A stretch of DNA of 64,000 nucleotides from a virus (taxonomy: Duplodnaviria; Heunggongvirae; Uroviricota; Caudoviricetes), in the IMG/VR virus record IMGVR_UViG_2778261510_000005; one strand, given 5' to 3'. Made by a program: the position numbers and the translations under genes. The notes beneath the pieces were generated by a model. It had not been told where the DNA came from, did no database searches, and worked only from the letters and a program-made list of their open reading frames with translations. Position 1 is the stretch's first letter. Every line of letters starts with the position of its first letter. Shown here piece by piece: positions 7,791 to 62,544 of this stretch.

Positions 7791-7829
7791 GTCGTAGGCC
7801 GCGCCCCGTCTGGCTTAGAAGCCTTTCGC

Positions 7830-7933
7830 GATGTGTGCTGGAGGGAAAATGATGTGCGCTGGAGGGAAAAAAATGTGTGCTGACGGGTTGCTAATGTGTG
7901 CTGGCGGGATATAGGATGTGTGCTGACGGGAAA
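7830..7933. repeat. incC: five direct 19-bp iterons spaced about 21 bp (RepA binding sites, repA promoter)
   Basis: GATGTGTGCTGGAGGGAAA at 7830; variants at 7851, 7872, 7893, 7915. Confidence 0.8.
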
Positions 7934-7989
7934 GCCTGGGTAGTTATCACCGCTTATAAAAACTATCCACATAATTCGGAAAAAGTAAT

Positions 7990-8850
7990 ATGAATCAATC
8001 ATTTATCTCCGATATTCTTTACGCAGACATTGAAAGTAAGGCAAAAGAACTAACAGTTAATTCAAACAACACTGTGCAGCCTGTAGCGTTGATGCGCTTG
8101 GGGGTATTCGTGCCGAAGCCATCAAAGAGCAAAGGAGAAAGTAAAGAGATTGATGCTACCAAAGCGTTTTCCCAGCTGGAGATAGCTAAAGCCGAGGGTT
8201 ACGATGATATTAAAATCACCGGTCCTCGACTCGATATGGATACTGATTTCAAAACGTGGATCGGTGTCATCTACGCGTTCAGCAAATACGGCTTGTCTTC
8301 AAACACCATCCAGTTATCGTTTCAGGAGTTCGCTAAAGCCTGTGGTTTCCCCTCAAAACGTCTGGATGCGAAACTGCGTTTAACCATTCATGAATCACTT
8401 GGACGCTTGCGTAACAAGGGTATCGCTTTTAAGCGCGGAAAAGATGCTAAAGGCGGCTATCAGACTGGTCTGCTGAAGGTCGGGCGTTTTGATGCTGACC
8501 TTGATCTGATAGAGCTGGAGGCCGATTCGAAGCTCTGGGAGCTGTTCCAGCTTGATTATCGCGTTCTGTTGCAACACCACGCCTTGCGTGCCCTTCCGAA
8601 GAAAGAAGCTGCACAAGCCATTTACACTTTCATCGAAAGCCTTCCGCAGAACCCGTTGCCGCTATCGTTCGCGCGAATCCGTGAGCGCCTGGCTTTGCAG
8701 TCAGCTGTTGGCGAGCAAAACCGTATCATTAAGAAAGCGATAGAACAGCTTAAAACAATCGGCTATCTCGACTGTTCAATTGAGAAGAAAGGCCGGGAAA
8801 GTTTTGTAATCGTCCATTCTCGCAATCCAAAGCTGAAACTTCCCGAATAA
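7990..8850 (+). CDS. repA: iteron-binding plasmid replication initiator
   Basis: 286 aa; flanked upstream and downstream by arrays of the same 19-bp iteron; size and context as in P1 RepA. Confidence 0.9.
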   Translation: MNQSFISDILYADIESKAKELTVNSNNTVQPVALMRLGVFVPKPSKSKGESKEIDATKAFSQLEIAKAEGYDDIKITGPRLDMDTDFKTWIGVIYAFSKYGLSSNTIQLSFQEFAKACGFPSKRLDAKLRLTIHESLGRLRNKGIAFKRGKDAKGGYQTGLLKVGRFDADLDLIELEADSKLWELFQLDYRVLLQHHALRALPKKEAAQAIYTFIESLPQNPLPLSFARIRERLALQSAVGEQNRIIKKAIEQLKTIGYLDCSIEKKGRESFVIVHSRNPKLKLPE

Positions 8851-9095
8851 GTGTGTGCTGGAGGGCAGCTGCATTTGAAAAATGTGCGCTGCCGGGTTGC
8901 GCCACGCAGTTTGCCCAGACATTCCCTCCAGCACACATCTAACCATCCAAGTTTCCCTCCAGCGCACATCTAATCTTCTATCTTTCCCTCCAGCACACAT
9001 ATTTGATACCAGCGATCCCTCCACAGCACATAATTCAATGCGACTTCCCTCTATCGCACATTCTGGTCCTGCATCATCCCTCCAGCACACATCTA
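8850..9095. repeat. incA: about eight to nine iterons in mixed orientation (copy-number control locus)
   Basis: two forward GTGTGCTGGAGGG-type copies (8850-8897) then six reverse CCCTCCAGCACACAT-type copies through 9093. Confidence 0.8.
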
Positions 9096-9202
9096 ATAGC
9101 CTCATCGCCATTTCTTTACGTGCAATAATTGACGCACGAATCAAAAAAAGTTGCACGTAGCAGAATCAAACGTACAATTCACTCATACGAAATGATAAGG
9201 AG

Positions 9203-10414
9203 ATGATGATGAAACGCGATTACGGCGGTGTCGGCACCATAGCTCTTCGTGCAAGCGCATTACTTAAGGCCATGAGTCAGGATATTGAAGATCAGCGCAA
9301 AGAGTTCAATCAGACCGAGTATTATCAGACGTTCACTCGTAACGCTGTGGCAAAGTTGCCGAAGCTGAGCCGCCGCATTGTGGAGCAGGCCATCAAAGAG
9401 ATGGAAGATGATGGGTACCAGTTCAACAAGAAACAGGTCGGTAACGTTGAACAGTACGCGCTGACCATCCAGAACGTCATTGATATCTATGCCCACCGTA
9501 AGATCCCCAAATATCGCGACATTCACAAATCGCCTTACGTTATTTTTGTCGTAAACCTGAAGGGTGGCGTATCCAAAACGGTTTCCACAGTCACGTTGGC
9601 GCACGCTCTGCGTGTGCATCAGGATTTACTGCGTCACGATCTGCGCATTCTGGTAATTGACCTTGACCCTCAGGCATCCAGCACAATGTTCCTCGACCAT
9701 ACTCACAGTATTGGTTCCATCCTGGAAACCGCCGCGCAGGCGATGCTGAACGACCTGGACGCGGAGACGCTACGCAAAGAGGTGATTCGTCCGACCATCG
9801 TTCCTGGCGTAGACGTGATTCCAGCCTCTATCGACGATGGCTTTGTTGCCAGCCAATGGAAAGAGCTGGTTGAAGAGCATCTTCCCGGACAAAATCAGTA
9901 CGAAATCCTTCGACGCAATATCATTGATCGTGTTGCGGATGATTATGACTTTATCTTTATTGATACCGGTCCACACCTGGATCCGTTCCTGCTCAACGGT
10001 CTGGCGGCCAGCGATTTGCTGCTTACCCCTACCCCACCAGCCCAGGTTGACTTCCACTCAACACTGAAATATCTCACCCGTCTGCCAGAAATGCTGGAGC
10101 AACTGGAGGAGGAAGGCGTAGAACCGCGTTTGAGCGCCAGCATTGGTTTTATGTCGAAGATGACCGGCAAGCGCGATCACGAGACATCACACAGCCTTGC
10201 GCGTGAGGTTTACGCCAGCAACATTCTGGACTCTTCTCTGCCTCGTCTGGATGGCTTTGAGCGATGCGGCGAGTCTTTCGACACCGTAATCAGTGCCAAC
10301 CCGCAATCGTATCCAGGCAGTGCAGAGGCGCTGAAGAAGGCACGAACCGAGGCCGAGCGTTTCACTAAGGCTGTGTTTGATCGAATTGAGTTTGTTAGGG
10401 GTGAGGCGGCATGA
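9203..10414 (+). CDS. parA: partition ATPase (type Ia ParA/SopA family)
   Basis: deviant Walker A NLKGGVSKTVSTV; three consecutive ATGs at 9203-9211, AGGAG directly upstream so the third is the likelier start; long N-terminal DNA-binding extension. Confidence 0.9.
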   Translation: MMMKRDYGGVGTIALRASALLKAMSQDIEDQRKEFNQTEYYQTFTRNAVAKLPKLSRRIVEQAIKEMEDDGYQFNKKQVGNVEQYALTIQNVIDIYAHRKIPKYRDIHKSPYVIFVVNLKGGVSKTVSTVTLAHALRVHQDLLRHDLRILVIDLDPQASSTMFLDHTHSIGSILETAAQAMLNDLDAETLRKEVIRPTIVPGVDVIPASIDDGFVASQWKELVEEHLPGQNQYEILRRNIIDRVADDYDFIFIDTGPHLDPFLLNGLAASDLLLTPTPPAQVDFHSTLKYLTRLPEMLEQLEEEGVEPRLSASIGFMSKMTGKRDHETSHSLAREVYASNILDSSLPRLDGFERCGESFDTVISANPQSYPGSAEALKKARTEAERFTKAVFDRIEFVRGEAA

Positions 10415-11376
10415 AAAAAATAGTTTCCCGTGGACGAGTGCTGGGCAAGAATAGCTCCGAGTTTGCTCGCATGCTTGAAGGCAGTGAAGGCACCAAAACC
10501 TTTACCCTAAAATCTGGCCGCCAGGCTAAATTCTTGCTTACCGTCGTGCTGAGTGGTGAGATTGAGTCGCGCACGTTCGTTGACCCGGCAGTTAACGGCC
10601 GCGATCAGTCTCTGCTCACCCCTGAGTCGGTAAGCGATATTTCCCGCACCATTAAATTGCAACAGTTCTTCCCGGCTATCGGTCGTATGGTTGGGGAGCG
10701 CATTGAGGTATTGGACGGATCGCGTCGCCGTGCTGCGTGTATCTTCAATGAAACGAAATTTGAGATTCTGGTGACGAAAGATGAGATCAGCCTGGCGGAT
10801 GCCCGCCAGCTGGCCATTGATATCCAGACAGCCCGCGAACACACTCTGCGCGAGCTGGGTAAACGCTTCGAGGTTATGTACGGTAAGAATATGACCAAAG
10901 AAGAGATCGCCCGAGCTGAGAACATCTCAAAGGCTAAAGTGACGCGAGCTTTCCAGGCTGCCGCGGTGCCGGATGAGATGATTGCTGTCTTCCCCGTAGC
11001 CAGCGATCTCGCCCTTCCAGATTACCAGTTACTGCTCCAGATCGCCGAGGATGCTAACGCTAAAAGCGTGCCGATTGAAGAGCTGGTTGATACGGTGCGC
11101 GAACGAATTGCAGAGACTGAGGGCGCGAAAGAGGATAAAGCGAAGATACTGGCTATCTTCAAAGCGGAAAGCAAAAGCCTGAAGCCCGCGCCGGTTAAAT
11201 CTGTGGTGGTTGAGAAGCTGCGAGACTTCTCTGACCGTCGCCAATATGCCCGAAAGAAGTCCGATCCGAAAAAACGGGTTGTCGCCTACGAGTTCTCCAG
11301 ACTCCCGTCTGAAGTGCAAACTGAAATTGACGAAGCAATAAAAAAAATCATTGGGAAAATGTCTGCTGGGGAATAA
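10411..11376 (+). CDS. parB: partition centromere-binding protein
   Basis: 321 aa, ATGA overlap with parA stop; position and size as ParB of P1/P7 family. Confidence 0.85.
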   Translation: MKKIVSRGRVLGKNSSEFARMLEGSEGTKTFTLKSGRQAKFLLTVVLSGEIESRTFVDPAVNGRDQSLLTPESVSDISRTIKLQQFFPAIGRMVGERIEVLDGSRRRAACIFNETKFEILVTKDEISLADARQLAIDIQTAREHTLRELGKRFEVMYGKNMTKEEIARAENISKAKVTRAFQAAAVPDEMIAVFPVASDLALPDYQLLLQIAEDANAKSVPIEELVDTVRERIAETEGAKEDKAKILAIFKAESKSLKPAPVKSVVVEKLRDFSDRRQYARKKSDPKKRVVAYEFSRLPSEVQTEIDEAIKKIIGKMSAGE

Positions 11377-11439
11377 TCCCGCTGGTGGGAGGCGGCTTTA
11401 GCCCCCTCCCCTGTCTAAAATGTCCCGCGCCTATTTCAT

Positions 11440-11535
11440 GTATAAATATATGATATATATAGATATTCATGAAAAATTTCAGACTGAAATTCCCACGGTT
11501 TCACGCCTGTTTTAGTTGGGGCCCTCCCCCGCACA
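11440..11535. promoter_or_regulatory. candidate parS centromere region (AT-rich bend site flanked by ATTTCA-type heptamers)
   Basis: TGTATAAATATATGATATATATAGATATT AT-tract; AAATTTCAG, GAAATTCCC, GGTTTCACG heptamer-like repeats just downstream of parB. Confidence 0.4.
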
Positions 11536-17508: not shown

Positions 17509-17973
17509 TTATGTCCCAAGTGCTCTTTTTCTGCTTTGTTTGAGTGTTCTGATTTTACTGTCATAGGTTACAACATAGGCTGTTTTGAGAAGCCAATAGT
17601 CTCTACGTGCGGATAGCACAACAACGTAGTTTTCACACTCGTTCCAGATTACCCACTCTTCAGTTGGTCCTCGTCTTTCAGACCAACATGATATATCGCA
17701 ATGGTCATAATTCCTTATCATATGCGCGATCCAGCGGATCCGCTTACACCGTTCAAGATCAGGTATTCGTTCTTCTTCTATTTTTCCCTCTGATACTAAA
17801 TGCCAAAATCCGAACTCTTTCCCATCATATTCCGGTGAATAACGTAATCGAACAGGGAGACCCTTAAACGTTATATTAGAGATTAAAATATCTTCTCTAA
17901 CAACATCATATACATCGTCTATATACTCTTGCCAACTTCCATTGAAGTACAATAAATCTGGCATTTGAAGCAT
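17509..17973 (-). CDS. small protein with nuclease-like motifs, second gene of an AT-rich two-gene operon
   Basis: ATG at 17973 overlaps upstream stop in TGATG arrangement; motifs PEYDGKEFGFWHLVSEGK and WVIWNECE reminiscent of Vsr / PD-(D/E)xK folds. Confidence 0.5.
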   Translation of the reverse strand: MLQMPDLLYFNGSWQEYIDDVYDVVREDILISNITFKGLPVRLRYSPEYDGKEFGFWHLVSEGKIEEERIPDLERCKRIRWIAHMIRNYDHCDISCWSERRGPTEEWVIWNECENYVVVLSARRDYWLLKTAYVVTYDSKIRTLKQSRKRALGT

Positions 17974-18677
17974 CAGCGAGCCTCCCACACGAAAATATTA
18001 AATTTACTTTCTGTTGGAAGAGTGCTTTTTAGTAACTCCCTGTTTGTATGTGATTTTATCCTGTTTATGACTTGGATTTTTCCCGCGTTGCTATTCATTC
18101 CTCGATGAACGTAGCCTAACGCACCAATGAAAAGATCCGTTAGCTGCAATTGTTGCACTTCATGAGATCGTATATGTTGAATTCTGTTTATCGACTCATG
18201 ATTGTAATCATAGCGATCATTGTGAAGAACTCCTCTTAATTTCTCAATTTTTTCAATACCTAAAGTATCTTTTATATCTAGGTAGATATTGTATGTGTTG
18301 TTACTTTCTATTATGTTTTTTAAGACATAAAAAAACATCTTATAATAGAAAGTATTGTGATCTTGATGGAATCGAGCATGGTCCAGTTGCTCTTTATCAG
18401 GAACAACAACACCTCTAAAGCGCAATGCTGGGTTGCTGAAGAAGTAATCTACGACCTCTAAGTAAAATTCAACTTTGGACGCAGATACTTTAGTCCACTT
18501 GATTTCGAAATCAGGTTTTAAATTGTGTTTTAATTTTAATCCCTTGATGTCTCTAGCAATTTTTTTTGTGATAGTGCCAGGACACCAAAGCGCACCCAAT
18601 ACCATGACTTTATTATGATCATTTAGTAGGTGACAGGATTCATCGCAGAATACATTAAATGTTCTTCGGTTCAACAT
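17973..18677 (-). CDS. hypothetical protein with N-terminal acidic DE motif, first gene of AT-rich operon
   Basis: 234 aa; N-terminus NVFCDESCH...; markedly AT-rich coding sequence relative to flanks. Confidence 0.55.
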   Translation of the reverse strand: MLNRRTFNVFCDESCHLLNDHNKVMVLGALWCPGTITKKIARDIKGLKLKHNLKPDFEIKWTKVSASKVEFYLEVVDYFFSNPALRFRGVVVPDKEQLDHARFHQDHNTFYYKMFFYVLKNIIESNNTYNIYLDIKDTLGIEKIEKLRGVLHNDRYDYNHESINRIQHIRSHEVQQLQLTDLFIGALGYVHRGMNSNAGKIQVINRIKSHTNRELLKSTLPTESKFNIFVWEAR

Positions 18678-29553: not shown

Positions 29554-30983
29554 GTAAAACAACACCGACTAAAGACAGTATTCGTGCAGAGTTTGAAGAG
29601 CTTGTCGAGAAAGATTCATTCTGGTCGAAGTTTGTCGGCTCTCAATTTGTCTCGATGCTGACATTGTTTATTACCCAGATTGTCTACAGGTGCTTTCAGT
29701 ATGCCGATGCGGCGCTGGCTGAAGGCTTTATATCGACCGCGACGCGGCGTTCCTCTATCCTGGCAGCGGCAGAAACGAATAGTTACGTTGGTACCAAGCC
29801 AACACCGTCATCGGGGATGATTGAGATCACCGCCACAAGTGAAGATGCCCCAGCGGTAATCCCCAAAAACATGCCTTTAATATCTGACGACCAGTACCCT
29901 TACATGACTATGGATGTATGCAGGTTGGTTGACGGCACCGGTACGGTAGAAGTGGCACAGTTGGAAATCCAGGAGGTGACATATACCGTTACGGCAGCCA
30001 AAGAATTTCTGGAAGTCGTGTTATCAAAGGCTCTCACTGCTGTCTGCTATAAGCTGGAAGTATTCGTGACGACCGATGGTAAGACCACACAGTGGTCTTC
30101 CAGCACTATGTTCCGGTTAGCCGGTAGTAAAAGCCAGGTCTACGTTGAGTTTTATAAACCATCCGAGCAGTTGGGGGTTCGATTCGGTGATGGGCTAATT
30201 GGGCAAATACCGCCAGAAGGCTCGACCATTACACTTAAGGTATGGTGCACCAACGGAGATATAACCTTGGTTGCTGGCCAAAATCTGACGCCTGTCGATT
30301 CTGCTGCTAATTTAGCTAATTTGATTTCAGTTAAGACAACGACACCCATAACCGCAGGTACCGATGCCGAAACAACGGAGATCACACGTAATCGTGCACA
30401 ATATTACCTTGCCTATGATGATCAGGTCGTATGGGGCGGGGACTATACGTATTTTCTGGTGCGTAACATCCCGGGACTGTCCTGGATAAAGGCATGGGGC
30501 GAAGGCCAGCAAGAGAAATTAGATGGTGCTTATAATGTTCGGAATATCAATAAGATATTTATTTCAGGATGGCATCCAAACAAAAGCCAGTCAGAGCTTG
30601 AAGAAATGATCCTGGCTGCCTTTAAGAAGGTGCCGAATGAGTTGAACAAGAAATTCTCGTATAAAGAGGTCAGAAAACTACCCTTTAAGATCACCATCAC
30701 CGGGCGGATATCGGCAAGCCTGACCATTGAGAACGTGACTGATGAGCTGAAGTCGGCACTGGAAACAAAATTTGGGCGCGACTCAACTTTCTTTGATCCG
30801 AACCGCGTCGGAAAGTACATCCTGATTAAGAAAAAAGACGTTTGGGCGTTTATCGAAACGCTGGGTTATTTCCGCGACTTTTATCTGGAATTTGTCGAGT
30901 GGAATGAGTCCAACGGCTTTTACGATTTCGTTTATCTGGATACAGAAAGCTCCACCTTTAATATTTCGTATGAGGAGGAGTGA
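29550..30983 (+). CDS. baseplate structural protein
   Basis: 477 aa, ATGA overlap with upstream gene. Confidence 0.5.
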   Translation: MSKTTPTKDSIRAEFEELVEKDSFWSKFVGSQFVSMLTLFITQIVYRCFQYADAALAEGFISTATRRSSILAAAETNSYVGTKPTPSSGMIEITATSEDAPAVIPKNMPLISDDQYPYMTMDVCRLVDGTGTVEVAQLEIQEVTYTVTAAKEFLEVVLSKALTAVCYKLEVFVTTDGKTTQWSSSTMFRLAGSKSQVYVEFYKPSEQLGVRFGDGLIGQIPPEGSTITLKVWCTNGDITLVAGQNLTPVDSAANLANLISVKTTTPITAGTDAETTEITRNRAQYYLAYDDQVVWGGDYTYFLVRNIPGLSWIKAWGEGQQEKLDGAYNVRNINKIFISGWHPNKSQSELEEMILAAFKKVPNELNKKFSYKEVRKLPFKITITGRISASLTIENVTDELKSALETKFGRDSTFFDPNRVGKYILIKKKDVWAFIETLGYFRDFYLEFVEWNESNGFYDFVYLDTESSTFNISYEEE

Positions 30984-31819
30984 TGCAGCGTTCCTGGTTT
31001 AATAACCGGCTTACATCAGCTAAGCAAAAGTCATTGCTCTATAAATCATTGGCTGATTTGGTTCAGTCAATGATGGACACCTTTGTTGACCCATGGTTGG
31101 AGCGAATTACCAACCGGAAGTCTATTTTCTCCATGAGCAAGGAGGATCTGGAGACCAGGACAAATGAACTTGGCCAGTTCTTTACTATCAGAACCTCGAA
31201 CTCATCTTCCGTTCCGATGTTGTTACAACAGCGGCTTGATGAGATCCACTTTAAGGGAACTGAACGCCCTATAAACCAGACAATTTACCGCGAATTTAAC
31301 GGTATTTCTGTTTTATGGGATCCGATATATGCACCGGTGGACCTTGAGCGTCATCCCTATGGCACGGTTCTAATACCAGAAAGCACACTGGAGACTACCG
31401 GCGGCACATTCGGCGAGATGTTTCTGACTTCCAGAGGGATGATCAGTATTCCCATAAACGACTTGGCCCGGACAATGGGGATTACTGGCACGATAGATCA
31501 GTCCGCAATTACAGAAGAAATTCTCAGAAAGTTTAATCAGTTCGTAAAGCCTCTACTGCCACTGCATATAGTGTTTGATGGGCTTACGCTCTATTTGTCG
31601 GTTGTTGTAAATGAACAGGCCGACATGATCACTTTGAACGAGATTTCTGATACCGAAAAAGCGTACTGCTGGTTTGAAACTTCGGATACAACTTCGCTTA
31701 CTGGAGTTACGTCGATTAGCGCTCCGATCACTGCAACGCCGGGCGGCACTATTGTGAAAGCAACGCCTACGTTTGATCGCACCCGCGCAGATGATTTGCT
31801 GCTGGATAGCGATGCCTGA
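30983..31819 (+). CDS. baseplate/tail protein
   Basis: TGATG overlap, GAGGAGGAG RBS; 278 aa. Confidence 0.5.
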   Translation: MQRSWFNNRLTSAKQKSLLYKSLADLVQSMMDTFVDPWLERITNRKSIFSMSKEDLETRTNELGQFFTIRTSNSSSVPMLLQQRLDEIHFKGTERPINQTIYREFNGISVLWDPIYAPVDLERHPYGTVLIPESTLETTGGTFGEMFLTSRGMISIPINDLARTMGITGTIDQSAITEEILRKFNQFVKPLLPLHIVFDGLTLYLSVVVNEQADMITLNEISDTEKAYCWFETSDTTSLTGVTSISAPITATPGGTIVKATPTFDRTRADDLLLDSDA

Positions 31820-31897
31820 CAATCACCCCGTCCGTAGGGCGGGGTGACAAGTTACTTCTCTTACAATGAGGCTTCACAACATTGATTAGGGAAAATC

Positions 31898-32332
31898 ATG
31901 TCTGACGTCTCAACAAACCTCTATAAGAGTCAGTTGTTGGACTATTACTATCAGCGGCGCGCTGAATCGTCCATTAACAAAGGCTCTCGATTTTTAATCA
32001 GCAAGGCCGTTTTCGGTACCAGTTCGCTGGTTACCAAGAAAGGAGATGGCACTTATGAGATTGGAGAACTGCCAAAGGCTTTCGATCTGGCAGAACTGAC
32101 CAGTCAATTTTGCACCATCAACCTCGTGCCAACCTACTCAGGTGGGATAATTACTGTCCGAATGGACCTTGATCAAAGCCAGTTGCAGGAAGGGAAAAAC
32201 TACCCATTCAACACTCTGGTTGTTCTGGATAACGAGAACAAGCCAATCGCCATTATTTGTGTCCAGGAAGACTCGCTGTATGTGGGCAAAACATATACCG
32301 CAGTTATGGCCATAAACACGACTACAGCATAA
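31898..32332 (+). CDS. tail-fibre-associated protein (P1 R-like position)
   Basis: 144-aa ORF directly upstream of the tail fibre gene. Confidence 0.5.
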   Translation: MSDVSTNLYKSQLLDYYYQRRAESSINKGSRFLISKAVFGTSSLVTKKGDGTYEIGELPKAFDLAELTSQFCTINLVPTYSGGIITVRMDLDQSQLQEGKNYPFNTLVVLDNENKPIAIICVQEDSLYVGKTYTAVMAINTTTA

Positions 32333-32343
32333 GGATATGCTTG

Positions 32344-35262
32344 ATGAATGACGTTACAGTTGTCACATCGGTTACTTACCCATCACCCGAGTCGTTGGCT
32401 CTGGTGGCTGATGTGCAATACCACGAACCATATCTGTCAGCCGCGCTAAACCGAAAATTCAGGGGGATTGTTGACCCGGGATTTTATGCCGGTTTCTTAC
32501 CTAAGCCTGGCGGTGGGATGAACCTGTTAATCACCTCAGTGGATGGTGATAAAACCGCAGGCGCGGCGTCGGTGGATATTGGTGAATTCTACCAGGTAAC
32601 TATTCAGCAACGTAAGGATATTTCTCTTGCACTTAGTGCAGGCAAGAAATATGCAATTGTGCTGAAGGGAAGATACCTCCTTGGAGAAGATACCTATCAG
32701 GTGAATACCGCGTCACATATTCATGCGGCTGAATTTGTTGCCAGAACCTATACCGATTCATATCAGTTAGGAGATGGGGAGCTGCTTGTTTGTACGGTGA
32801 ATATCCCTGCTGGTGTATCTGCCATTACCCAAGAGATGATTGATACATCCGAGCGTATCAACCGCACGATCGGCATTGATATTTCAGACTCTGTAACCAG
32901 TAGCAGAAGTGATGTTGCTGCAAGTTCGCTGGCAGTTAAAAAAGCTTACGATCTGGCGAAAAGTAAGTATACGGCGCAGGATGCAAGCACAACGCAAAAG
33001 GGATTAGTTCAGCTCAGTAGCGAAACTAACAGCGACAGCGAAACAATGGCGGCTACCCCTAAAGCCGTTAAGTCTGTAAAAGATCTTGCTGATACCAAAG
33101 CGCCAATAGAAAGCCCGAGTCTGACAGGAACGCCAACCGCGCCGACGGCAGCGCAAGGTACAAATAGCACGCAGATCGCAAATACAGCCTTTGTTAAGGC
33201 AGCTATAACGGCACTTATCAACGGTGCACCTGGCACACTGGATACGCTTAAAGAAATAGCTGCTGCGATCAATAACGACCCGAATTTCAGCACAACTATC
33301 AACAATGCTCTGGCTCTTAAAGCTCCTTTAGCAAGTCCTGCATTAACGGGAATACCTACTGCGCCTACCGCTGCACAGGGTACGAATAACACGCAGATTG
33401 CTACGACCGCTTATGTAAGAGCTGCCATATCCGCATTGGTTGGTTCATCACCAGAAGCTCTTGATACCCTGAATGAGCTTGCCGCAGCACTTGGTAATGA
33501 CCCGAACTTTGCGACAACAATGACAAATGCGCTGGCAGGCAAACAGCCTCTGGATGCAACTTTAACCGCGCTCGCTGGCCTTGCGACTGGTGCAAACAAA
33601 CTGCCTTATTTCACCGGTAAGGATACGGTAGCGCAGACTGATTTAACGTCAGTCGGTCGCGATATTCTGGCTAAAACAAGCACACTGGCCGTTATCCAAT
33701 ACCTTGGTTTAAGAGAACTCGGTACCAGCGGTGAAAAGATCCCCCTGTTGAGCACGGCTAACACATGGAGTGCACGCCAGACTTTCAACGGCGGGATCAC
33801 CGGGGCGCTGACAGGGAACGCCGATACCGCAACAAAATTGAAAACAGCCAGAAACATTAATGGCGTCAGGTTCGATGGTTCTGGTGACATTAATATCAAT
33901 ACTCTGGTATCGCGCGGTCGCGTAACGGCCCTGGAGGCGAATGCACAGGGAACATCCGGGATTCAGCTGTATGAGGCATACAACAATGGCTACCCTTCCC
34001 CCTATGGCAATGTGCTTCACCTTAAAGGTGCCACCGCTGCTGGCGAAGGTGAGTTATTCATTGGCTGGAGTGGCACGAGCGGTGCCCATGCGCCCGTACA
34101 TATCCGTTCGCGGCGGGATACTGATTCTGCCAACTGGTCTGAATGGGCGCAGGTCTATACGTCAAAAGATTCAATTCCCGGCGTCAATGCCAAAGGGGAT
34201 CAGGATACCTCTGGTAATGCGGCTACAGCGACCAAGTTGCAGACAGCATGTACTATCAACGGTGTCTCGTTTGATGGTTCTAAAAATATTGAGCTAACGG
34301 CTGAAAATTTAAATCTTGAGCGAACAGTAGAATTAGCCGCTGGGTCATTGCAGAAAAATCAGAACGGCGCGGATATTCCTGGAAAAGATACCTTCACTAA
34401 AAATATTGGTGCATGTCGCGCTTTTCACAGTTCTATTAGTACAGGTGCAGGGAACTGGACAACGGCACAATTGATTGAATGGCTGGATTCTCAAGGGGCA
34501 TTCAATCACCCATACTGGATGTGCAAATGTTCATGGTCGTACGGCAATAATAAAATTATAACCGATACTGGCTGTGGAACTATTCATCTTGCAGGTTGCG
34601 TTATTGAGGTTATGGGTAATAAAGGTGCCATGACCATCCGTGTAACAACACCAAGCACTTCCAGCGGTGGCGGAATCACTAATGCTCAATTCACTTATAT
34701 TAATCATGGTGATGCTTACGCTCCTGGCTGGCGACGAGACTACAACACGAAAAACCAGCAGCCTGCATTTGCTTTAGGGCAAACAGGACGCAGGGTCGCA
34801 AATGATAAAGCTGTTGGCTGGAACTGGAATAGCGGCGTTTATGATGCAGATATCAGTGGCGCATCGACATTAATCCTCCACTTTAATATGAATGCGGGGA
34901 GTTGCCCTGCTGTACAGTTCCGCGTGAATTACAGAAATGGCGGTATCTTTTATCGTTCAGCGCGTGATGGTTATGGCTTTGAAGCTAACTGGTCAGAGTT
35001 TTACACCACAACACGCAAACCCTCTGCGGGAGATGTTGGTGCATATACGCAGGCAGAATGTAACTCAAGGTTTATTACAGGTATTCGCCTTGGCGGTCTG
35101 TCATCTGTTCAGACATGGAATGGCCCCGGCTGGTCTGACAGGTCAGGTTATGTCGTTACGGGTTCAGTTAACGGAAACCGTGATGAATTAATTGATACAA
35201 CTCAGGCAAGGCCAATTCAGTATTGCATTAATGGAATGTGGTATAACGCGGGGAGTATTTAA
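32344..35262 (+). CDS. S: tail fibre protein: constant part fused to currently in-phase variable part
   Basis: 972 aa from ATG 32344 (AAGGA RBS); internal tandem repeat; the segment STANTWSARQTFNGGITGALTGNADTATKLKTAR is duplicated in inverted orientation at the start of the alternative variable part at 37641. Confidence 0.75.
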   Translation: MNDVTVVTSVTYPSPESLALVADVQYHEPYLSAALNRKFRGIVDPGFYAGFLPKPGGGMNLLITSVDGDKTAGAASVDIGEFYQVTIQQRKDISLALSAGKKYAIVLKGRYLLGEDTYQVNTASHIHAAEFVARTYTDSYQLGDGELLVCTVNIPAGVSAITQEMIDTSERINRTIGIDISDSVTSSRSDVAASSLAVKKAYDLAKSKYTAQDASTTQKGLVQLSSETNSDSETMAATPKAVKSVKDLADTKAPIESPSLTGTPTAPTAAQGTNSTQIANTAFVKAAITALINGAPGTLDTLKEIAAAINNDPNFSTTINNALALKAPLASPALTGIPTAPTAAQGTNNTQIATTAYVRAAISALVGSSPEALDTLNELAAALGNDPNFATTMTNALAGKQPLDATLTALAGLATGANKLPYFTGKDTVAQTDLTSVGRDILAKTSTLAVIQYLGLRELGTSGEKIPLLSTANTWSARQTFNGGITGALTGNADTATKLKTARNINGVRFDGSGDININTLVSRGRVTALEANAQGTSGIQLYEAYNNGYPSPYGNVLHLKGATAAGEGELFIGWSGTSGAHAPVHIRSRRDTDSANWSEWAQVYTSKDSIPGVNAKGDQDTSGNAATATKLQTACTINGVSFDGSKNIELTAENLNLERTVELAAGSLQKNQNGADIPGKDTFTKNIGACRAFHSSISTGAGNWTTAQLIEWLDSQGAFNHPYWMCKCSWSYGNNKIITDTGCGTIHLAGCVIEVMGNKGAMTIRVTTPSTSSGGGITNAQFTYINHGDAYAPGWRRDYNTKNQQPAFALGQTGRRVANDKAVGWNWNSGVYDADISGASTLILHFNMNAGSCPAVQFRVNYRNGGIFYRSARDGYGFEANWSEFYTTTRKPSAGDVGAYTQAECNSRFITGIRLGGLSSVQTWNGPGWSDRSGYVVTGSVNGNRDELIDTTQARPIQYCINGMWYNAGSI
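33112..33555 (+). repeat. tandem duplication of about 222 bp (74 aa) inside the tail fibre constant region
   Basis: SPSLTGTPTAPTAAQGTNSTQIANTAFVKAAITAL...NDPNFSTT repeated as SPALTGIPTAPTAAQGTNNTQIATTAYVRAAISAL...NDPNFATT. Confidence 0.5.
33692..33717. other. cix-type recombination site (left boundary of invertible segment, inside S)
   Basis: TTATCCAATACCTTGGTTTAAGAGAA; its reverse complement matches the site at 37672-37699 over TTCTCTTAAACCAAGG. Confidence 0.6.
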
Positions 35263-45705: not shown

Positions 45706-46492
45706 AATCGCTTTCCACTTCTTCCGTGGTGTTTTCTTGCAGTTCTGTTAATGCAGCACGACATAGGTTCCGGGCATTGGCTATAGCCACACTTTTGACT
45801 TCATCCGTCATCGTGCAGGTAATGTACTGATCGAGTTCTTCAGCGTGGATGATGCTTTTGCCAATCAGAAACTGTATTTGCCAGAGCAGATCGGCATCCA
45901 TAATCAGAATTTCTGCCGGGCCTTCAGGGCCAGCCGGGAAGGAAACATAAGACTGTTTGCCCAGGCCGATAACTCGACAACTTGCTTCAAGAATTGCGCG
46001 CTTGAGGTCTGACTTTGTAACTGAAACAGGTTGATTTTCACCTGCGATTACGCCGTTGACATGGATGTGGAAAGGCATGTAGCTTGAAATTCGCTCTACT
46101 TTCCATACGCCAGCAAGCGATCCTTCATGCAGCACAATGGGGGTAACCGCGAGTTTCATCTCACCATATAACTGCTGGCAGATGGCTGGATTGCTGAATA
46201 CATCCAAAGGTTCACACTCAAACAGCGGCGCAATCTGCATGAGGTCCATCATGGTCATACTAGGGGTACGAGCAGTAATGAATCTGCGCATGCCAGTATC
46301 CATTGTGCGCCAGATAGCTACACCATGCTTTTTGCTCACTTCTTCAGTAAAGCCAAGGTGGCACATGATGGTTTTTTCGATAGCCAGATCAGAGATAGAA
46401 ACCTTTTCGCCAGGTACACCATCATTATTGATGGTCACTTCGACACTCTGGCCATTACGCAGGCGGTATTGAATTGCTTTAGTATTTTCCAC
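45704..46492 (-). CDS. hypothetical protein
   Basis: 262-aa ORF, convergent with Dar operon. Confidence 0.45.
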   Translation of the reverse strand: MENTKAIQYRLRNGQSVEVTINNDGVPGEKVSISDLAIEKTIMCHLGFTEEVSKKHGVAIWRTMDTGMRRFITARTPSMTMMDLMQIAPLFECEPLDVFSNPAICQQLYGEMKLAVTPIVLHEGSLAGVWKVERISSYMPFHIHVNGVIAGENQPVSVTKSDLKRAILEASCRVIGLGKQSYVSFPAGPEGPAEILIMDADLLWQIQFLIGKSIIHAEELDQYITCTMTDEVKSVAIANARNLCRAALTELQENTTEEVESD

Positions 46493-46498
46493 GTTAAA

Positions 46499-47176
46499 TC
46501 ACTCCACTACAAACCAGTCACATGCCAGTAAGTCGCATACAGAAGGCACCCACGGAACAACTACACCTTGTGCATTTTTTAAGGCGAAATAAGCACCATA
46601 CGGAACGAGGTCGCCGGGGAAATATCCCTTAATGGCTTCCATTCGTGCCGGGTACTGTCCTTCAGGAACCAGCCAGCAGAATTGGTTTTCGCCGTTCCAC
46701 CCGCGTCGAGCAACTTTCTTGCCATCCTTCAGCCACATCAGCGCGTCAGAAAAGTCGGCTGCTTCAAGGTCGATTTCTTCTTGTGTGGTAATGATGCCAC
46801 TGGCAGCAATAGTTACGTCCCTGGCTGTAATGAATGTCACCCCATTGTGACCTTCAATACTGAGCGATACCCCATTTTCGAAGAAGTCGTTAGTCCGACT
46901 AAAGCCTTCTTCAAATGTTTTTTCTGGTGAATAGGACAGAGATCCGTCCTCATAAGCGACCAGATATCCGCCAATTTCTGGTCGGTGTTTTTGCAAAAAC
47001 ATTTTATCAACATGGACTTTTACCCCTTCTGGCTCAACGACTTCGATGTTGCAAAAAAGGACCACATCCATTAGGGCGATAATTTCGATATCTTTGATTT
47101 TTGAGGCGCGAACTGTTTTATGGCTTTTGTATTTTGGAAGTGCCGTCAAAAGCTCTTTCGTTGTCATGTTATTCAT
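46499..47176 (-). CDS. two-domain protein with C-terminal DUF2829-like segment
   Basis: ATG 47176 with GAGGAAA RBS; C-terminal ALMWLKDGKKVARRGWNGENQFCWLVPEG...VPWVPSVCDLLACDWFVVE. Confidence 0.5.
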   Translation of the reverse strand: MNNMTTKELLTALPKYKSHKTVRASKIKDIEIIALMDVVLFCNIEVVEPEGVKVHVDKMFLQKHRPEIGGYLVAYEDGSLSYSPEKTFEEGFSRTNDFFENGVSLSIEGHNGVTFITARDVTIAASGIITTQEEIDLEAADFSDALMWLKDGKKVARRGWNGENQFCWLVPEGQYPARMEAIKGYFPGDLVPYGAYFALKNAQGVVVPWVPSVCDLLACDWFVVE

Positions 47177-47373
47177 AGTCTTTCCTCTGCTTAAAACCTG
47201 ATGTATTGCGCCTTCAGGTGGGTCAGGAATGTTTTCCCACCAGCGAAAGCAATATCTCGGGGTGTTCTTTTCGTGAAAAGCGCGTGCCATTGCCAACTTT
47301 GGCGTTTGTTTGCGAGTTCGTGCTTTTGTCGGCGTCTGGACCACCGCTTTTCTTTCAGTCGTTTTTTACACAT

Positions 47374-48589: not shown

Positions 48590-48836
48590 ACTCCGGCAGC
48601 TCCGCCGACTTTCGACAATGAAGTTATCGCTGGCGGCGATAGTTTTCGACTCGATTTTCATGGCGGTATATGTGCTCAATGAGACGTGGCCACTGGAACC
48701 GCTATTATATGCCGGGCTTCGGCTGTGCCTGACATTTTTGAGCATGGCTGCGAGATTGATGCAGCAGAAAGAAACCGCTTCAGATTGTCCACGCCGCGCG
48801 GTGCGCAAATATATGGCACGCAGGCGAAGGCGATAA
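48582..48836 (+). CDS. small membrane protein overlapping lyz 3' end
   Basis: 84 aa, 8-nt overlap with lyz; hydrophobic core, Arg-rich C-terminus; followed by terminator. Confidence 0.4.
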   Translation: MNKLRQLRRLSTMKLSLAAIVFDSIFMAVYVLNETWPLEPLLYAGLRLCLTFLSMAARLMQQKETASDCPRRAVRKYMARRRRR

Positions 48837-48847
48837 TAGTTAACGAT

Positions 48848-48875
48848 AACCCCGGAAGCCGCCGGGGTTATTTTT
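48848..48875 (+). terminator. rho-independent terminator
   Basis: AACCCCGG-AAGCCG-CCGGGGTT followed by ATTTTT. Confidence 0.6.
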
Positions 48876-50216
48876 GGTGGTTATCCGGTGCGCCGTAAAA
48901 TCCCGTCCTTCAGGGAGGGGATATAAGGCGTGGTTTTCCACCTAACTGTTTTTGTTTAAAATAGTGGGATGAAGCGACTACAAGCATTTAAATTCCAGTT
49001 AAGACCCGGTGGTCAACAGGAGCGTCAAATGAGGCTCTTTGCCGGAGCTTGTCGTTTCGTTTTCAATCGTGCACTGGCACTTCAGAATGAGAATTATGAG
49101 GCCGGGAATAAATACATCCCTTACACGAAAATGGCTTCCTGGTTGGTTGAGTGGAAAAAAGACACTGAAACCGAATGGCTTAAAGATTCTCCCTCACAGC
49201 CATTGCAGCAGTCACTGAAAGACCTTGAGCGGGCCTACAAAAATTTCTTCCAGAAGCGGGCGGCTTTTCCCCGATTCAAAAAGCGGGGACAGAATGATGC
49301 ATTCCGCTACCCGCAGGGTGTTAAGCTCGACCAGGAAAACAGCCGTATTTTTCTGCCGAAACTTGGCTGGATGCGCTACCGTAACAGCCGGCAGGTCACG
49401 GGGATTGTGAAAAATGTCACTGTCAGCCAGTCCTGCGGTAAATGGTACATCAGTATTCAGACAGAAAGTGAAGTATCCACTCCGGCTCACCCTTCAGCAT
49501 CAATGGTCGGATTGGATGCTGGCGTGGCCAGGCTCGCCACGCTGTCAGATGGCACAGTCTTTGAGCCTGTAAACAGTTTCCAGAAAAACCAGAAAAAGCT
49601 GGCGAGACTTCAGCGCCAGTTAAGCCGCAAGGTCAGATTCAGCAACAACTGGCAGAAGCAGAAACGCAAAATACAGCAACTGCACTCCCGTATCGCAAAT
49701 ATCCGCAGAGACTACCTTCATAAAGTCACAACGATCATCAGCAAAAACCACGCAATGATTGTCATTGAGGATTTGAAGGTTAAACACATGTCAAAGTCAG
49801 CGGCGGGTACGATAAGTCAGCCGGGTCGCAATGTCCGGGCAAAATCAGGTTTAAACCGTTCGATACTGGATCAGGGCTGGTATGAAATGCGCCGCCAGCT
49901 TGCGTACAAGCAGCTCTGGCGTGGCGGTCAGGTGCTTGCTGTTCCGCCAGCGTATACAAGCCAGCGTTGCGCGTACTGTGGTCATACAGCGAAAGAGAAC
50001 CGCCTGTCACAAAGTAAATTCAGATGCCAGGTATGTGGATATACAGCGAACGCCGATGTAAATGGCGCTCGCAACATTTTAGCGGCGGGGCACGCCGTTC
50101 TTGCCTGTGGAGAGATGGTGCAGTCAGGCCGCCCGTTGAAGCAGGAACCCACCGAAATGATTCAGGCGACAGCCTGAACGTAGCAGGAATCCACGCCCGT
50201 CAGGGCGTGGAGGGTG
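48876..50216 (+). mobile_element. IS200/IS605-family tnpB-only element inserted between lysis genes and prohead protease gene (ends approximate)
   Basis: intact tnpB; right-end hairpin CCACGCCC-GTCA-GGGCGTGG at 50191-50210 about 6 bp from the convergent protease stop; no tnpA ORF; left end not resolved. Confidence 0.5.
48969..50177 (+). CDS. tnpB: TnpB RNA-guided endonuclease (OrfB_IS605)
   Basis: 402 aa; RuvC-I GLDAGV, RuvC-II IVIEDL, zinc ribbon CAYCGHT...CQVCGYT, Ruv[14 protein letters not shown]. Confidence 0.85.
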
Positions 50217-52947
<2,731 letters not shown>

Positions 52948-60500: not shown

Positions 60501-60505
60501 GAACT

Positions 60506-60532
60506 CTCCGGCCTAGGGAGATTAGGCCGGAG
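60506..60532. terminator. perfect 10-bp-stem hairpin between convergent lxc and SIR2 genes
   Basis: CTCCGGCCTA-GGGAGAT-TAGGCCGGAG; no clean U-tract on either side. Confidence 0.5.
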
Positions 60533-60541
60533 ATAAATATA

Positions 60542-61846
60542 CTATATAAACTTAGATATAATATCGTGAATCTGTTGTAGCGGGATATCTTCCATCTCAT
60601 TCTTAATAAGAGAGCGGTTAGATGCTGTCAGTGAAGGCCATTTTGTTTTCCAGGCTAGATATGCTCGCCATGAGCAGCCTGTTTCGTAAGGTTTATTCAT
60701 ATTAGTCATTGAGTGCTCAACCGCATGTATGTATTTTTTCTCAAAATTGGTTCCTTTTACTTCAAATAAACTACCGAAATAAATAAGCCATTTTGCCAAG
60801 TGTTCATACTGCTCCCATGCGCCAGGCTTTTTAGTAAGTTCTATTTTTTTATCTATTATATTACAAAAAACATTTAATACATTTTCATTATTCCAGCTAT
60901 ATCCAGATGATGAAATGGAGGAAATGATATGATAAAAAGAATCCTCTAGCTTCAAGAACTCTATTTTATACTCTCTTCCGTTTTTTATTACCGATTTGAT
61001 TGAGTGCCTCAATTTGTCTTTTATTTTTTTTGCTTCTGGAATTTTATCGTTAAGTTTTCTAAAGAAATCAGATACCTCTGTTTTATCTATAACCCTAACC
61101 CCATAGCAGGAAAAATAGTAATCTTTAATAGGTTGCAATAGTTCCCCTCGGGAAACAAGGAAAATATTGGAGGACATTACGTTGTCCCGTGAAAATACCT
61201 TATATTCATTTATAATAGCCTTTAGGTTCGCGTCACTTAGAGAATAGCCAAGGATAACAATAGTGTTTTCATGTAGAACTGTGCTTAGTTTATTAGAAAA
61301 GTAAGAATTACCATTTATAAATCTGAAATAATCCTCGCTAGTAACAACCATGTCTGATGGGGAGTCTATAGAACCGTGAACATGGTAGACTTTAACCTCA
61401 CAATTATATTTTGGAATTGGCAGGCCGGGGGTGATTGTACACGTTCGATTCTCTCCAGCCAGCTTTTCTGCTAACTTGTCATAATTTGTCGTAATTACTT
61501 TAAATGTGTTTTCTTTGAAAAAGTCTTGAATATATTCAATTGATGGATCAAGTTCGATTGAGGCTATGATTTTCTCAATCTCCTGGTAAATATTTTTCCC
61601 CGAAAGTATAAATTTTAGTGCAATAACCTGAGCAGCCTCTTCAAGGCTAAGGTCTTTTGCTTTTCCATCAGGAAATAATTCCTCTTTGAGTGAGTCACCA
61701 TCCTTCAACAAACCGCACAGTTGCTCCAATAAAGATTGCCAACTTGGGGCTTTATCATCAGAAACAGCCTTTGAAAATCCAGTGCCTGTAAGAAAGCACA
61801 GCCTATGTGTAGCTGCTGCATAGGCAATTTCTATATACTCGCTCAT
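60542..61846 (-). CDS. SIR2-family (ThsA-like SIR2_2) protein with uncharacterised alpha-helical C-terminal domain
   Basis: 434 aa; motif blocks FLTGTGFSKAVSDDKAPSWQSLL, KVITTNYDKL, VYHVHGSIDSP...EDY, IVILGYSLSDANL align to ThsA SIR2 blocks; ATG 61846 with GGAG RBS; coding sequence AT-rich. Confidence 0.8.
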   Translation of the reverse strand: MSEYIEIAYAAATHRLCFLTGTGFSKAVSDDKAPSWQSLLEQLCGLLKDGDSLKEELFPDGKAKDLSLEEAAQVIALKFILSGKNIYQEIEKIIASIELDPSIEYIQDFFKENTFKVITTNYDKLAEKLAGENRTCTITPGLPIPKYNCEVKVYHVHGSIDSPSDMVVTSEDYFRFINGNSYFSNKLSTVLHENTIVILGYSLSDANLKAIINEYKVFSRDNVMSSNIFLVSRGELLQPIKDYYFSCYGVRVIDKTEVSDFFRKLNDKIPEAKKIKDKLRHSIKSVIKNGREYKIEFLKLEDSFYHIISSISSSGYSWNNENVLNVFCNIIDKKIELTKKPGAWEQYEHLAKWLIYFGSLFEVKGTNFEKKYIHAVEHSMTNMNKPYETGCSWRAYLAWKTKWPSLTASNRSLIKNEMEDIPLQQIHDIISKFI

Positions 61847-61902
61847 TACTTACTCCATTTACTTATAGTTCTACGGAGAAGTATACCCTAATGCATTGAC
61901 GT

Positions 61903-62544
61903 TTATAGATAATTTCCTTTTCCTGTTAATACTCCCTTAGGCACCTGTTTTTGTGCCAGCGTTTGGGTTCCGCGAATTATGTTAATCAGAGGGCTTAGTA
62001 ACGATGGTTCCTGGCGTGCCTCAACTTCTCCAGCCATTGCCCTGATGTAGTCTGCGCTGGCAACGTTGTTGTATTCCGTCGCAAAGCAACATAGTAACGT
62101 CAGAACATGCTCTGTCGTTATTTCGCTCCAGTTGATGTTGAAAAATTCATCGCCTTTTTTGTCGTGTTCGGAATCGAAGATGCTTTGGTGGAGGATGTAT
62201 TTGCCGGATTCTTTGCGCGGTAACTTGATCGCTTTCTGGCGTTCCAATTCCTTGTAAATCTGCATTGCCTCAATTAGTACCGGCCTGCCGTTCATGAAGG
62301 GATCGCGCAACCTTACACGCTGGCCAACTCGACCAGTAATAAAGCTGTTTTCCTCTTCCACCAGCACGATAAAACCTTTTTCCTCTTTCTCACGCAATTC
62401 GCGCAGCAACTGGAGTTCCATATCGCGGCGGCGTTCAGGGTAGCTGGTCCGCTCAGCCATTATCAGCTCGTTGTTGATCCATGCAGCAGTCATTGACGCC
62501 GGTTTGCCGACGCTCATCGAAACAACGCATATTTTCTTATCCAT
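61903..62544 (-). CDS. hypothetical 213-aa protein, upstream partner of the SIR2 gene
   Basis: ATG 62544 preceded by AGGGGG; 56-bp spacer to SIR2 gene; ORF-track N-terminal extension to GTG 62691 rejected. Confidence 0.5.
   Translation of the reverse strand: MDKKICVVSMSVGKPASMTAAWINNELIMAERTSYPERRRDMELQLLRELREKEEKGFIVLVEEENSFITGRVGQRVRLRDPFMNGRPVLIEAMQIYKELERQKAIKLPRKESGKYILHQSIFDSEHDKKGDEFFNINWSEITTEHVLTLLCCFATEYNNVASADYIRAMAGEVEARQEPSLLSPLINIIRGTQTLAQKQVPKGVLTGKGNYL

Follow-up and report, generated by a model that had tools for sequence, protein, structure and literature searches.

How does a gene for an RNA-guided nuclease come to lie between the lysis genes and the head genes of a phage, with no transposase gene beside it? 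The question is raised by a 64,000-nucleotide stretch of viral DNA (Caudoviricetes; IMG/VR record IMGVR_UViG_2778261510_000005), called the window here at its full length, in which an earlier note made from the sequence had recognised a tnpB element without tnpA at 48876-50216. The DNA belongs to a P1-like (Punavirus) phage-plasmid. Most of the window is colinear with a P1 variant, at an identity of 97-99%, and the window as a whole represents 64 kb of a replicon of ~95-100 kb. We found a complete tnpA-less, IS609-like element of the IS200/IS605 family at 48885-50220 on the plus strand. Taken as a whole, the best explanation, which we hold with high confidence, is that it is a non-autonomous derivative of the enterobacterial IS609/insQ lineage that lacks tnpA.

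Alignment with the P1 empty site (NC_005856), from which the element is absent, gave exact breakpoints for a 1,336-bp insertion, window 48885-50220; the borders first proposed were close to these but not exact. The left border falls between GGTGGTTAT and CCGGTGCGCC, and the right border between GGAGGGTGTCAA and TTAAACGGG. Comparison of the occupied and empty sites showed no target-site duplication, the order being TTAT, the element, and then TTAAACGG. The comparison with relatives that the earlier note had called for therefore yields both the ends of the element and its target-adjacent motif (TAM), the TTAT at 48881-48884 (plus strand) directly 5′ of the left end. Insertion 3′ of a specific motif, with no duplication and no terminal inverted repeats, is as expected for the IS200/IS605 family. 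To the left lie lyz, lydD and the operon terminator, and to the right, in convergent orientation, pro (head processing) and prt (portal), so the element does sit between lysis and head genes, as had been described. The terminator, an intrinsic-terminator-like hairpin followed by a T-run that closes the lyz-lydD lysis operon (48846-48876, plus strand; stem 48846-48871 by DNA folding), is native P1 sequence a short way upstream of the insertion point and is present at the P1 empty site.

The lydE/pro junction is uninterrupted in P1, P7, RCS47, SJ46 and ~443 PLSDB plasmids. Among ~484 P1-like plasmids in PLSDB, ~41 (~8%) carry the insertion at exactly this place, all of these counts being approximate because they derive from BLAST coverage bands. 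The occupied plasmids come from E. coli, Salmonella, E. fergusonii and E. albertii. A domesticated or fixed gene would be found at the same position in all relatives and without terminal hairpins; the empty sites in P1, P7 and ~443 plasmids rule this out, and terminal hairpins exist. The earlier view of the gene as an insertion thus holds.

Both ends of the element contain subterminal hairpins and conserved cleavage motifs, as in other IS200/IS605 elements. The left end (48885-48945, plus strand) forms an imperfect subterminal hairpin at ~48890-48931 with an inner stem at 48902-48920 (DNA fold z = -4.1). It includes GTAAAA at 48895-48900, the last base of which covaries with the last base of the TAM. 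The right-end hairpin, already noticed at 50191-50210, where the sequence is CCACGCCC-GTCA-GGGCGTGG, takes up 50190-50211 (plus strand; z = -3.9) and is preceded by GAAT (50187-50190). Its stem shows compensatory changes in relatives, one pair for example being AU in 19, UG in 17 and CG in 13. The element terminates in TCAA (50217-50220, plus strand), the cleavage motif ('TEM').

The affiliation of the element was established from 134 related loci gathered from species genomes and viral contigs. In Enterobacterales the right end ...GGAGG(A/G)TGTCAA, typically GGAGGATGTCAA, was found at 67 distinct sites with unrelated DNA beside it; the window copy has GGAGGGTGTCAA in place of the GGAGGATGTCAA of nearly all relatives. 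Of 45 distinct left flanks, 28 were TTAT and 13 TTAC, 41 in all. Across sites the left-end motif GTAAA[A/G]CC covaries with the TAM: its variable base is A next to TTAT and G next to TTAC. At full length (1,748 bp) the relatives also have a Y1 tnpA, which is encoded on the opposite strand and lies between the left end and tnpB; this gene was intact in 22 of 34 sampled relatives from Enterobacterales.

The IS609/insQ element of E. coli, a member of the IS605 group, is 94-95% identical in nucleotide sequence to the window copy over tnpB and the right end, from position 86 onward, and has the same left-end start (CCGGTGCGCCGTAAAA), a right end of GGAGGATGTCAA and the same TAM, TTAT. It differs in that the window copy is without the ~430-bp tnpA segment (1,336 versus 1,748 bp), has another short linker between the left end and tnpB, and starts tnpB with ATG rather than GTG. 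Of 5,426 complete E. coli genomes, 5,014 have chromosomal insQ/IS609 copies, while just 32 E. coli records reach 95% identity or more to the element, which places the P1 copy in a separate sub-lineage. A tblastn search of the 64-kb window with an IS609-type TnpA found no tnpA (best E 1.3), as the earlier note had it for a Y1 transposase gene, and no second copy of the element was found elsewhere in the window. Since tnpA is absent from both the element and the window, the element is classed as a non-autonomous derivative.

The 1,336-bp tnpA-less copies all share one junction between the left end and tnpB, in which CTAAC is followed directly by TGTTTTTGTTTAAAATAGTGGGATG. They include the window copy at pro, copies next to ddrA in RCS47, SJ46 and vB_EcoM-813R1, copies in Citrobacter and in other viral contigs, and, with small changes, copies in Kluyvera. 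Because one junction is shared and yet the insertion sites differ, the tnpA-less form must, to judge from these sequences, be a lineage of its own that was moved in trans more than once. The ddrA-adjacent insQ copy has the same tnpA-less architecture on the same kind of replicon and, like the copy at pro, supplies the stop codon of a convergent gene (ddrA) from its right end. It differs from the window copy in its site, in being ~94% identical, and in its diverged tnpB 5′ end. Its right end reads TCAC instead of TCAA, and its left end is divergent over the first ~32 nt. This second recurrent P1-like site, between ddrB and ddrA, is occupied in RCS47 (30578-33080) and in 15 IMG/VR contigs.

Movement in trans is also suggested by comparison with other tnpB-only elements, since conserved ends shared with a tnpA-bearing relative imply mobilisation by that relative. 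The tnpB-only ISGst (IS1341-type) elements of G. stearothermophilus have the same organisation and have ends in common with a tnpA-bearing relative; the window element does not differ from them in principle and is their enterobacterial counterpart on a phage-plasmid (PMC10055086). Most tnpB elements are non-autonomous (PMC10055086). The ends of the window element resemble those of IS608 from H. pylori in the use of TTAC or TTAT as target, the lack of a duplication, the TCAA terminus and the imperfect subterminal hairpins. As in IS608, the left-end hairpin has AAAA or AAAG on its 5′ side, varying in step with the last base of the target, and the right-end hairpin has GAAT on its 5′ side. Barabas and colleagues are said to have described in 2008 that AAAG pairs with TTAC, and GAAT with TCAA, in IS608. 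The two elements differ in sequence family and host, and the window copy is without tnpA.

The tnpB gene (48969-50177, plus strand) encodes a protein of 402 amino acids, which the RefSeq annotation labels 'RNA-guided endonuclease TnpB family protein'. Its Pfam matches, three in number and all above the gathering thresholds, are HTH_OrfB_IS605 (PF12323, 8e-14), OrfB_IS605 (PF01385, 3e-32) and Cas12f1-like_TNB (PF07282, 3e-23). The layout is that of a TnpB, with an N-terminal helix-turn-helix/WED-REC region, a RuvC-like OrfB_IS605 domain and a C-terminal zinc-ribbon/TNB domain. The NCBIfam model NF040570 (guided_TnpB) gave 383.5 bits against a cut-off of 100. Residues 3-376 align with ISDra2 TnpB from D. 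radiodurans (8EXA/8H1J, E 1e-50), and in this structure-sequence alignment D183, E268 and D363 lie opposite the catalytic residues D191, E278 and D361. The zinc-finger cysteines form CxxC pairs at 334-337 and 353-356 (C334/C337 and C353/C356), so that the complete RuvC motifs and the CxxC...CxxC ribbon first read from the open reading frame (ORF) are all present. TnpB is apparently intact, and nuclease activity is predicted from its sequence. A sigma-70-like promoter match, TTTCCA-16-TAAAAT, was found by consensus scan directly before the tnpB ATG (48935-48962, plus strand), and its -10 is kept, as is TTTAAAAT, in all tnpA-less copies in the alignment.

The last ~170 nt of the element are predicted to form the scaffold of an omega RNA (50051-50220, plus strand), overlapping the tnpB 3′ end and the right end. 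RNAalifold applied to 59 distinct relatives gave a consensus structure of 46 pairs, of which 97.5% are canonical. Ten pairs show double-sided changes, one of them for example being AU in 32 and GC in 26. When the 3′ partners were moved by 1-3 columns, 39-48% of pairs were canonical, and column shuffles never reached the observed values. The many G-U pairs on the tnpB strand point to an RNA in the orientation of tnpB, beyond a mere DNA hairpin. A long-range pairing joins 50074-50079 to 50212-50217, just before the right border. The omega RNA of ISDra2 has a long-range pairing next to the guide, and the window RNA prediction is alike in that its guide-adjacent region pairs with an upstream segment. 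Further likenesses to ISDra2 (8EXA, 8H1J, 8BF8) are the conserved D/E/D residues and a structured RNA over the gene 3′ end and right end; unlike ISDra2, the window element has TTAT instead of TTGAT as TAM, and its TnpB has a 15-residue insertion after the RuvC-II glutamate. In the scaffold region the Rfam matches all stayed below threshold (RAGATH-18 with 25.4 bits where 44.9 are required, HgcC and sot0042) and offer weak corroboration of a guide RNA; RAGATH-18-derived RNAs are the guides of IS607 TnpBs (PMC11061315). A guide RNA is thus plausible on the strength of these models.

On the family model, and with the right border mapped, the predicted 16-nt guide is TTAAACGGGTTGATTG (50221-50236, plus strand). 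This segment belongs to the P1 flank and runs antisense to the final codons of pro. The earlier suggestion that the convergent gene would contribute the guide from its 3′ end follows from the family model, and the conserved RNA structure, which ends at the right border, agrees with it. The sole near-match to TAM plus guide within the window is the occupied site itself, where TCAA replaces TTAT; the occupied site would for this reason be protected from its own TnpB. The right flank of the yedK copy, CAAACAGGTTGAATTAA, resembles the P1 flank TTAAACGGGTTGATTGAA and was considered as a sign of guide-directed targeting; the resemblance is out of register with the TAM and the sequence is native in P1, and we attribute it to chance.

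An antisense guide, in an element convergent with pro, invites the proposal that TnpB acts independently of its nuclease, as a repressor or roadblock at pro/lydE of the kind represented by TldR or Cas12m, or that the omega RNA acts as antisense to pro mRNA. We consider this highly improbable. TldRs have lost both the RuvC triad and the zinc finger, and both are intact here; the guide simply corresponds to the flank of a true insertion. Moreover, the occupied site has no TAM and so offers no target on the element's own replicon, and the same family occurs at 67 unrelated sites.

The insertion alters the 3′ ends of two genes. The earlier note had placed the stop codon of a convergent protease gene a few base pairs from the right-end hairpin. 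The gene is convergent, but it is P1 pro, a head-processing gene whose product is itself no demonstrated protease (50217-51236, minus strand), and its stop codon lies inside the element. In P1 the TTAT motif on the minus strand overlaps the TAA stop codon of pro, and the insertion point falls within the last sense codon, changing K to N (P1 ...NSINPFK, window ...NSINPFN); this is residue 339 when numbered from the P1 start codon and 349 in the extended ORF with a TTG start. The stop codon, TAA in P1, is here TGA, provided on the minus strand by the TCA (50217-50219) within the TCAA terminus. TTAT reads ATAA in reverse complement, so that the TAM overlaps a TAA stop; the element swaps in an in-frame TGA, and in the last sense codon the third base alone is altered. 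On the other side, the last codons of a small, overlapping lydE-like ORF (48686-48898, plus strand; a putative antiholin by P1 annotation) run into the left end of the element (C-terminus ...WWLSGAP versus ...WWLFKRID). Because the right end gives pro a stop codon back, the insertion is nearly neutral for the phage.

The same exchange occurs elsewhere. At 14 of the 67 distinct sites the right-end TGA terminates a convergent ORF of 60 or more codons, compared with 3 and 3 in the control frames; examples are pro in the window, ddrA in RCS47, yedK and yfeD. Annotation also places the stop of ydcO at the right-end TGA, in an ORF below the 60-codon cut-off. That the right end always supplies a convergent stop was true of the first five sites inspected; the overall count makes it an enrichment and no rule. 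In the P1-like phage vB_EcoM-673R5 (ON470615.2, 49642-53993) another IS200/IS605 insertion, annotated as ISEc42, lies just past pro; the lyz region of this phage is annotated as two overlapping hypothetical ORFs.

The mechanism can be outlined from the IS608/ISDra2/GstIS paradigm, and mobilisation in trans combined with TnpB-dependent retention or drive is by this analogy the most likely one. The Y1 (HUH) TnpA of an autonomous relative would insert the element as single-stranded DNA 3′ of TTAT. tnpB would then be transcribed from the promoter-like site close to the left end, or by read-through, and the 3′ part of the transcript would become the omega RNA, its last ~16 nt (50221-50236) being flanking pro sequence. 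The TnpB/omega-RNA complex would cut TTAT plus the guide sequence, that is, the unoccupied lydE/pro junction. An empty copy, arising by excision or present in a co-resident element-free P1 relative, would be cut; either it would then disappear or an occupied copy would serve for its repair. The outcome would be retention of the element, or a gene drive through the polyploid plasmid or phage population. Homing and retention by TnpB have been described (Meers et al., PMC10055086), and a TnpB gene drive in plasmids has been obtained experimentally with ISDra2 (Mears et al., PMC11870625).

Several points weigh against this scheme. The guide RNA and cleavage are predicted for the window copy from in-silico evidence and family analogy, the tnpB promoter is putative, a consensus match only, and the GGAGGGTGTCAA variant turns a U-A pair into U-G in the predicted RNA. 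With no tnpA in the 64-kb window, and with many of the tnpA genes of E. coli chromosomal IS609 annotated as pseudogenes, the element may be immobile in its present host. Lastly, most empty P1-like sites carry a mismatch to the guide at position 9, which by comparison with other TnpBs probably blocks cleavage.

This position (window 50229) lies 9 nt from the insertion point and shows a G/A polymorphism that is synonymous in pro. G was present in all occupied copies seen, and A in the empty sites of P1, pRM10386-1 and pM505-b. A junction query able to seed on the G allele only recovered 27 empty PLSDB plasmids, ~6% of the empties; the remaining ~94% of empty sites have A instead of G and so mismatch the guide. 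In other TnpBs guide positions 5-12 are sensitive to mismatches (PMC12781874). Three G-allele empties were inspected, pEA24_3, pO111_2 and one further perfect 42-mer, and all match TTAT and the 16-nt guide perfectly. The idea that the G allele is private to occupied sites, susceptible alleles having been swept by drive, is refuted by the 27 empty G-allele plasmids. One of these, E. albertii pEA24_3 (NZ_CP117623.1), has icd and a KilAC antirepressor gene before the terminator/TTAT junction, in place of lyz-lydD; the region to the left of the insertion hotspot is rearranged in some P1-like replicons, with a 21-nt junction kept.

These alleles bear on two stronger proposals. In one, the element is a TnpA-independent homing drive or exclusion device among P1-like replicons, which would cut the empty TTAT plus TTAAACGGGTTGATTG during co-infection or lytic polyploidy, recombination then copying the element in. 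We regard this as unlikely, though not negligibly so. If it were true, it would explain why the element is found on mosaic backbones in E. coli, Salmonella, E. albertii and E. fergusonii, and the synonymous G-to-A change at position 9 would be a natural drive-resistance allele. In the other, TnpB and its omega RNA are a domesticated phage weapon that destroys or converts element-free P1 relatives to the benefit of the phage, by marker exclusion of the homing-endonuclease type. Guide plus TAM do equal the empty junction of relatives, with 27 matching plasmids in PLSDB, P1 is polyploid in lytic growth, ISDra2 provides a demonstrated plasmid gene drive (PMC11870625), and the second P1 site at ddrA recurrently holds a related copy. 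However, every IS200/IS605 element has a guide equal to its empty site by construction, which makes the match unspecific. The prevalence of position-9 mismatches and the low prevalence of the element among P1-like replicons also argue against a weapon, and no phage-specific changes are seen, the junction and ends being as in the chromosomal Citrobacter and Kluyvera copies. We think a domesticated weapon quite improbable.

The element may alternatively be a stranded relic, an old single insertion that is immobile without TnpA and whose TnpB and omega RNA are idle in P1, inherited vertically or by hitch-hiking. This is possible, and we give it limited credence. The missing tnpA and the frequent tnpA pseudogenes of E. 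coli chromosomal IS609 fit such a history, as do the near neutrality of an insertion that restores the pro stop, the occupancy of just ~8% of P1-like plasmids, and the persistence of 27 empty G-allele sites with no visible sweep of susceptible alleles. The sequences of the copies speak against it. Copies at the pro site differ by 0.8-1.4%, similar to the flanking P1 backbone, yet the tnpB ORF is intact in all copies comparable without gaps. The ratio of non-synonymous to synonymous substitution rates (dN/dS), taken against the window tnpB, is 0.10-0.28; the comparison includes four copies at the same P1 site, for which the counts are small (4-5 non-synonymous versus 5-14 synonymous changes). 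Full conservation is also seen in the ends and in the RNA structure. Eight occupied copies have right flanks of mosaic haplotype, in which the link to occupancy is lost by the next variable site, 105 bp away. Divergence among copies and mosaic flanks together indicate that the insertion is no recent clonal event, and the loss of linkage within ~105 bp indicates that the element has outlasted much recombination. Monophyly of the occupied plasmids offers no test here, as the flanks are mosaic and recombination in P1 is too high to separate homing from ordinary recombination. A lineage mobilised in trans, with TnpB providing retention or drive, thus remains the mechanism we favour.

Other parts of the window also differ from P1. 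A 281-amino-acid ORF by ssb (46499-47344, minus strand) ends in a Tad2-like domain (Thoeris anti-defence 2; Pfam E 6e-23) at its C-terminus; the segment that holds it, 46489-47172, has no match in the P1 variant MH422554. A 1.5-kb segment at 60504-62031, likewise absent from MH422554, contains the gene for a 434-amino-acid SIR2_2-domain protein (60542-61846, minus strand) that is weakly similar to the sirtuin domains of the defence proteins Dsr1/Dsr2 and is probably a defence cargo gene of the window plasmid. A third variable segment absent from MH422554, 17005-18831, encodes a DUF3800 protein (17973-18677, minus strand), adjoined by a 159-amino-acid ORF (17509-17988, minus strand) with no Pfam match. 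The replication and partition module (7804-11472) comprises a Rep3-type initiator (7990-8850), ParA (9203-10414) and ParB (10411-11376). It has no nucleotide-level match to the module of MH422554, so the window plasmid is of another replicon/partition type than that P1.

The insertion is genuine, and it is of a very common and already well-understood kind; in this sense it is ordinary. The TnpB-only elements of the IS200/IS605 family count among the most abundant known genes. Dozens of public P1-like plasmids have this gene annotated as TnpB, and the biology presumed for it, retention by homing and gene drive on plasmids, has been published for other family members; among the papers searched, none describes this P1 insertion. 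It provides a clean example of how the TTAT and TCAA motifs (reverse complements ATAA and TTGA) allow an element to occupy a stop codon, exchanging TAA for TGA. Beyond this, it has a modest value as a natural test bed, P1 being genetically tractable, polyploid in lytic growth and readily recombining. Natural populations offer occupied sites, perfectly matching empty sites and empty sites mismatched at position 9, the G allele being susceptible and the A allele probably resistant. This set of alleles would permit tests of TnpB-driven spread through a phage population, and of resistance to it by a single base.

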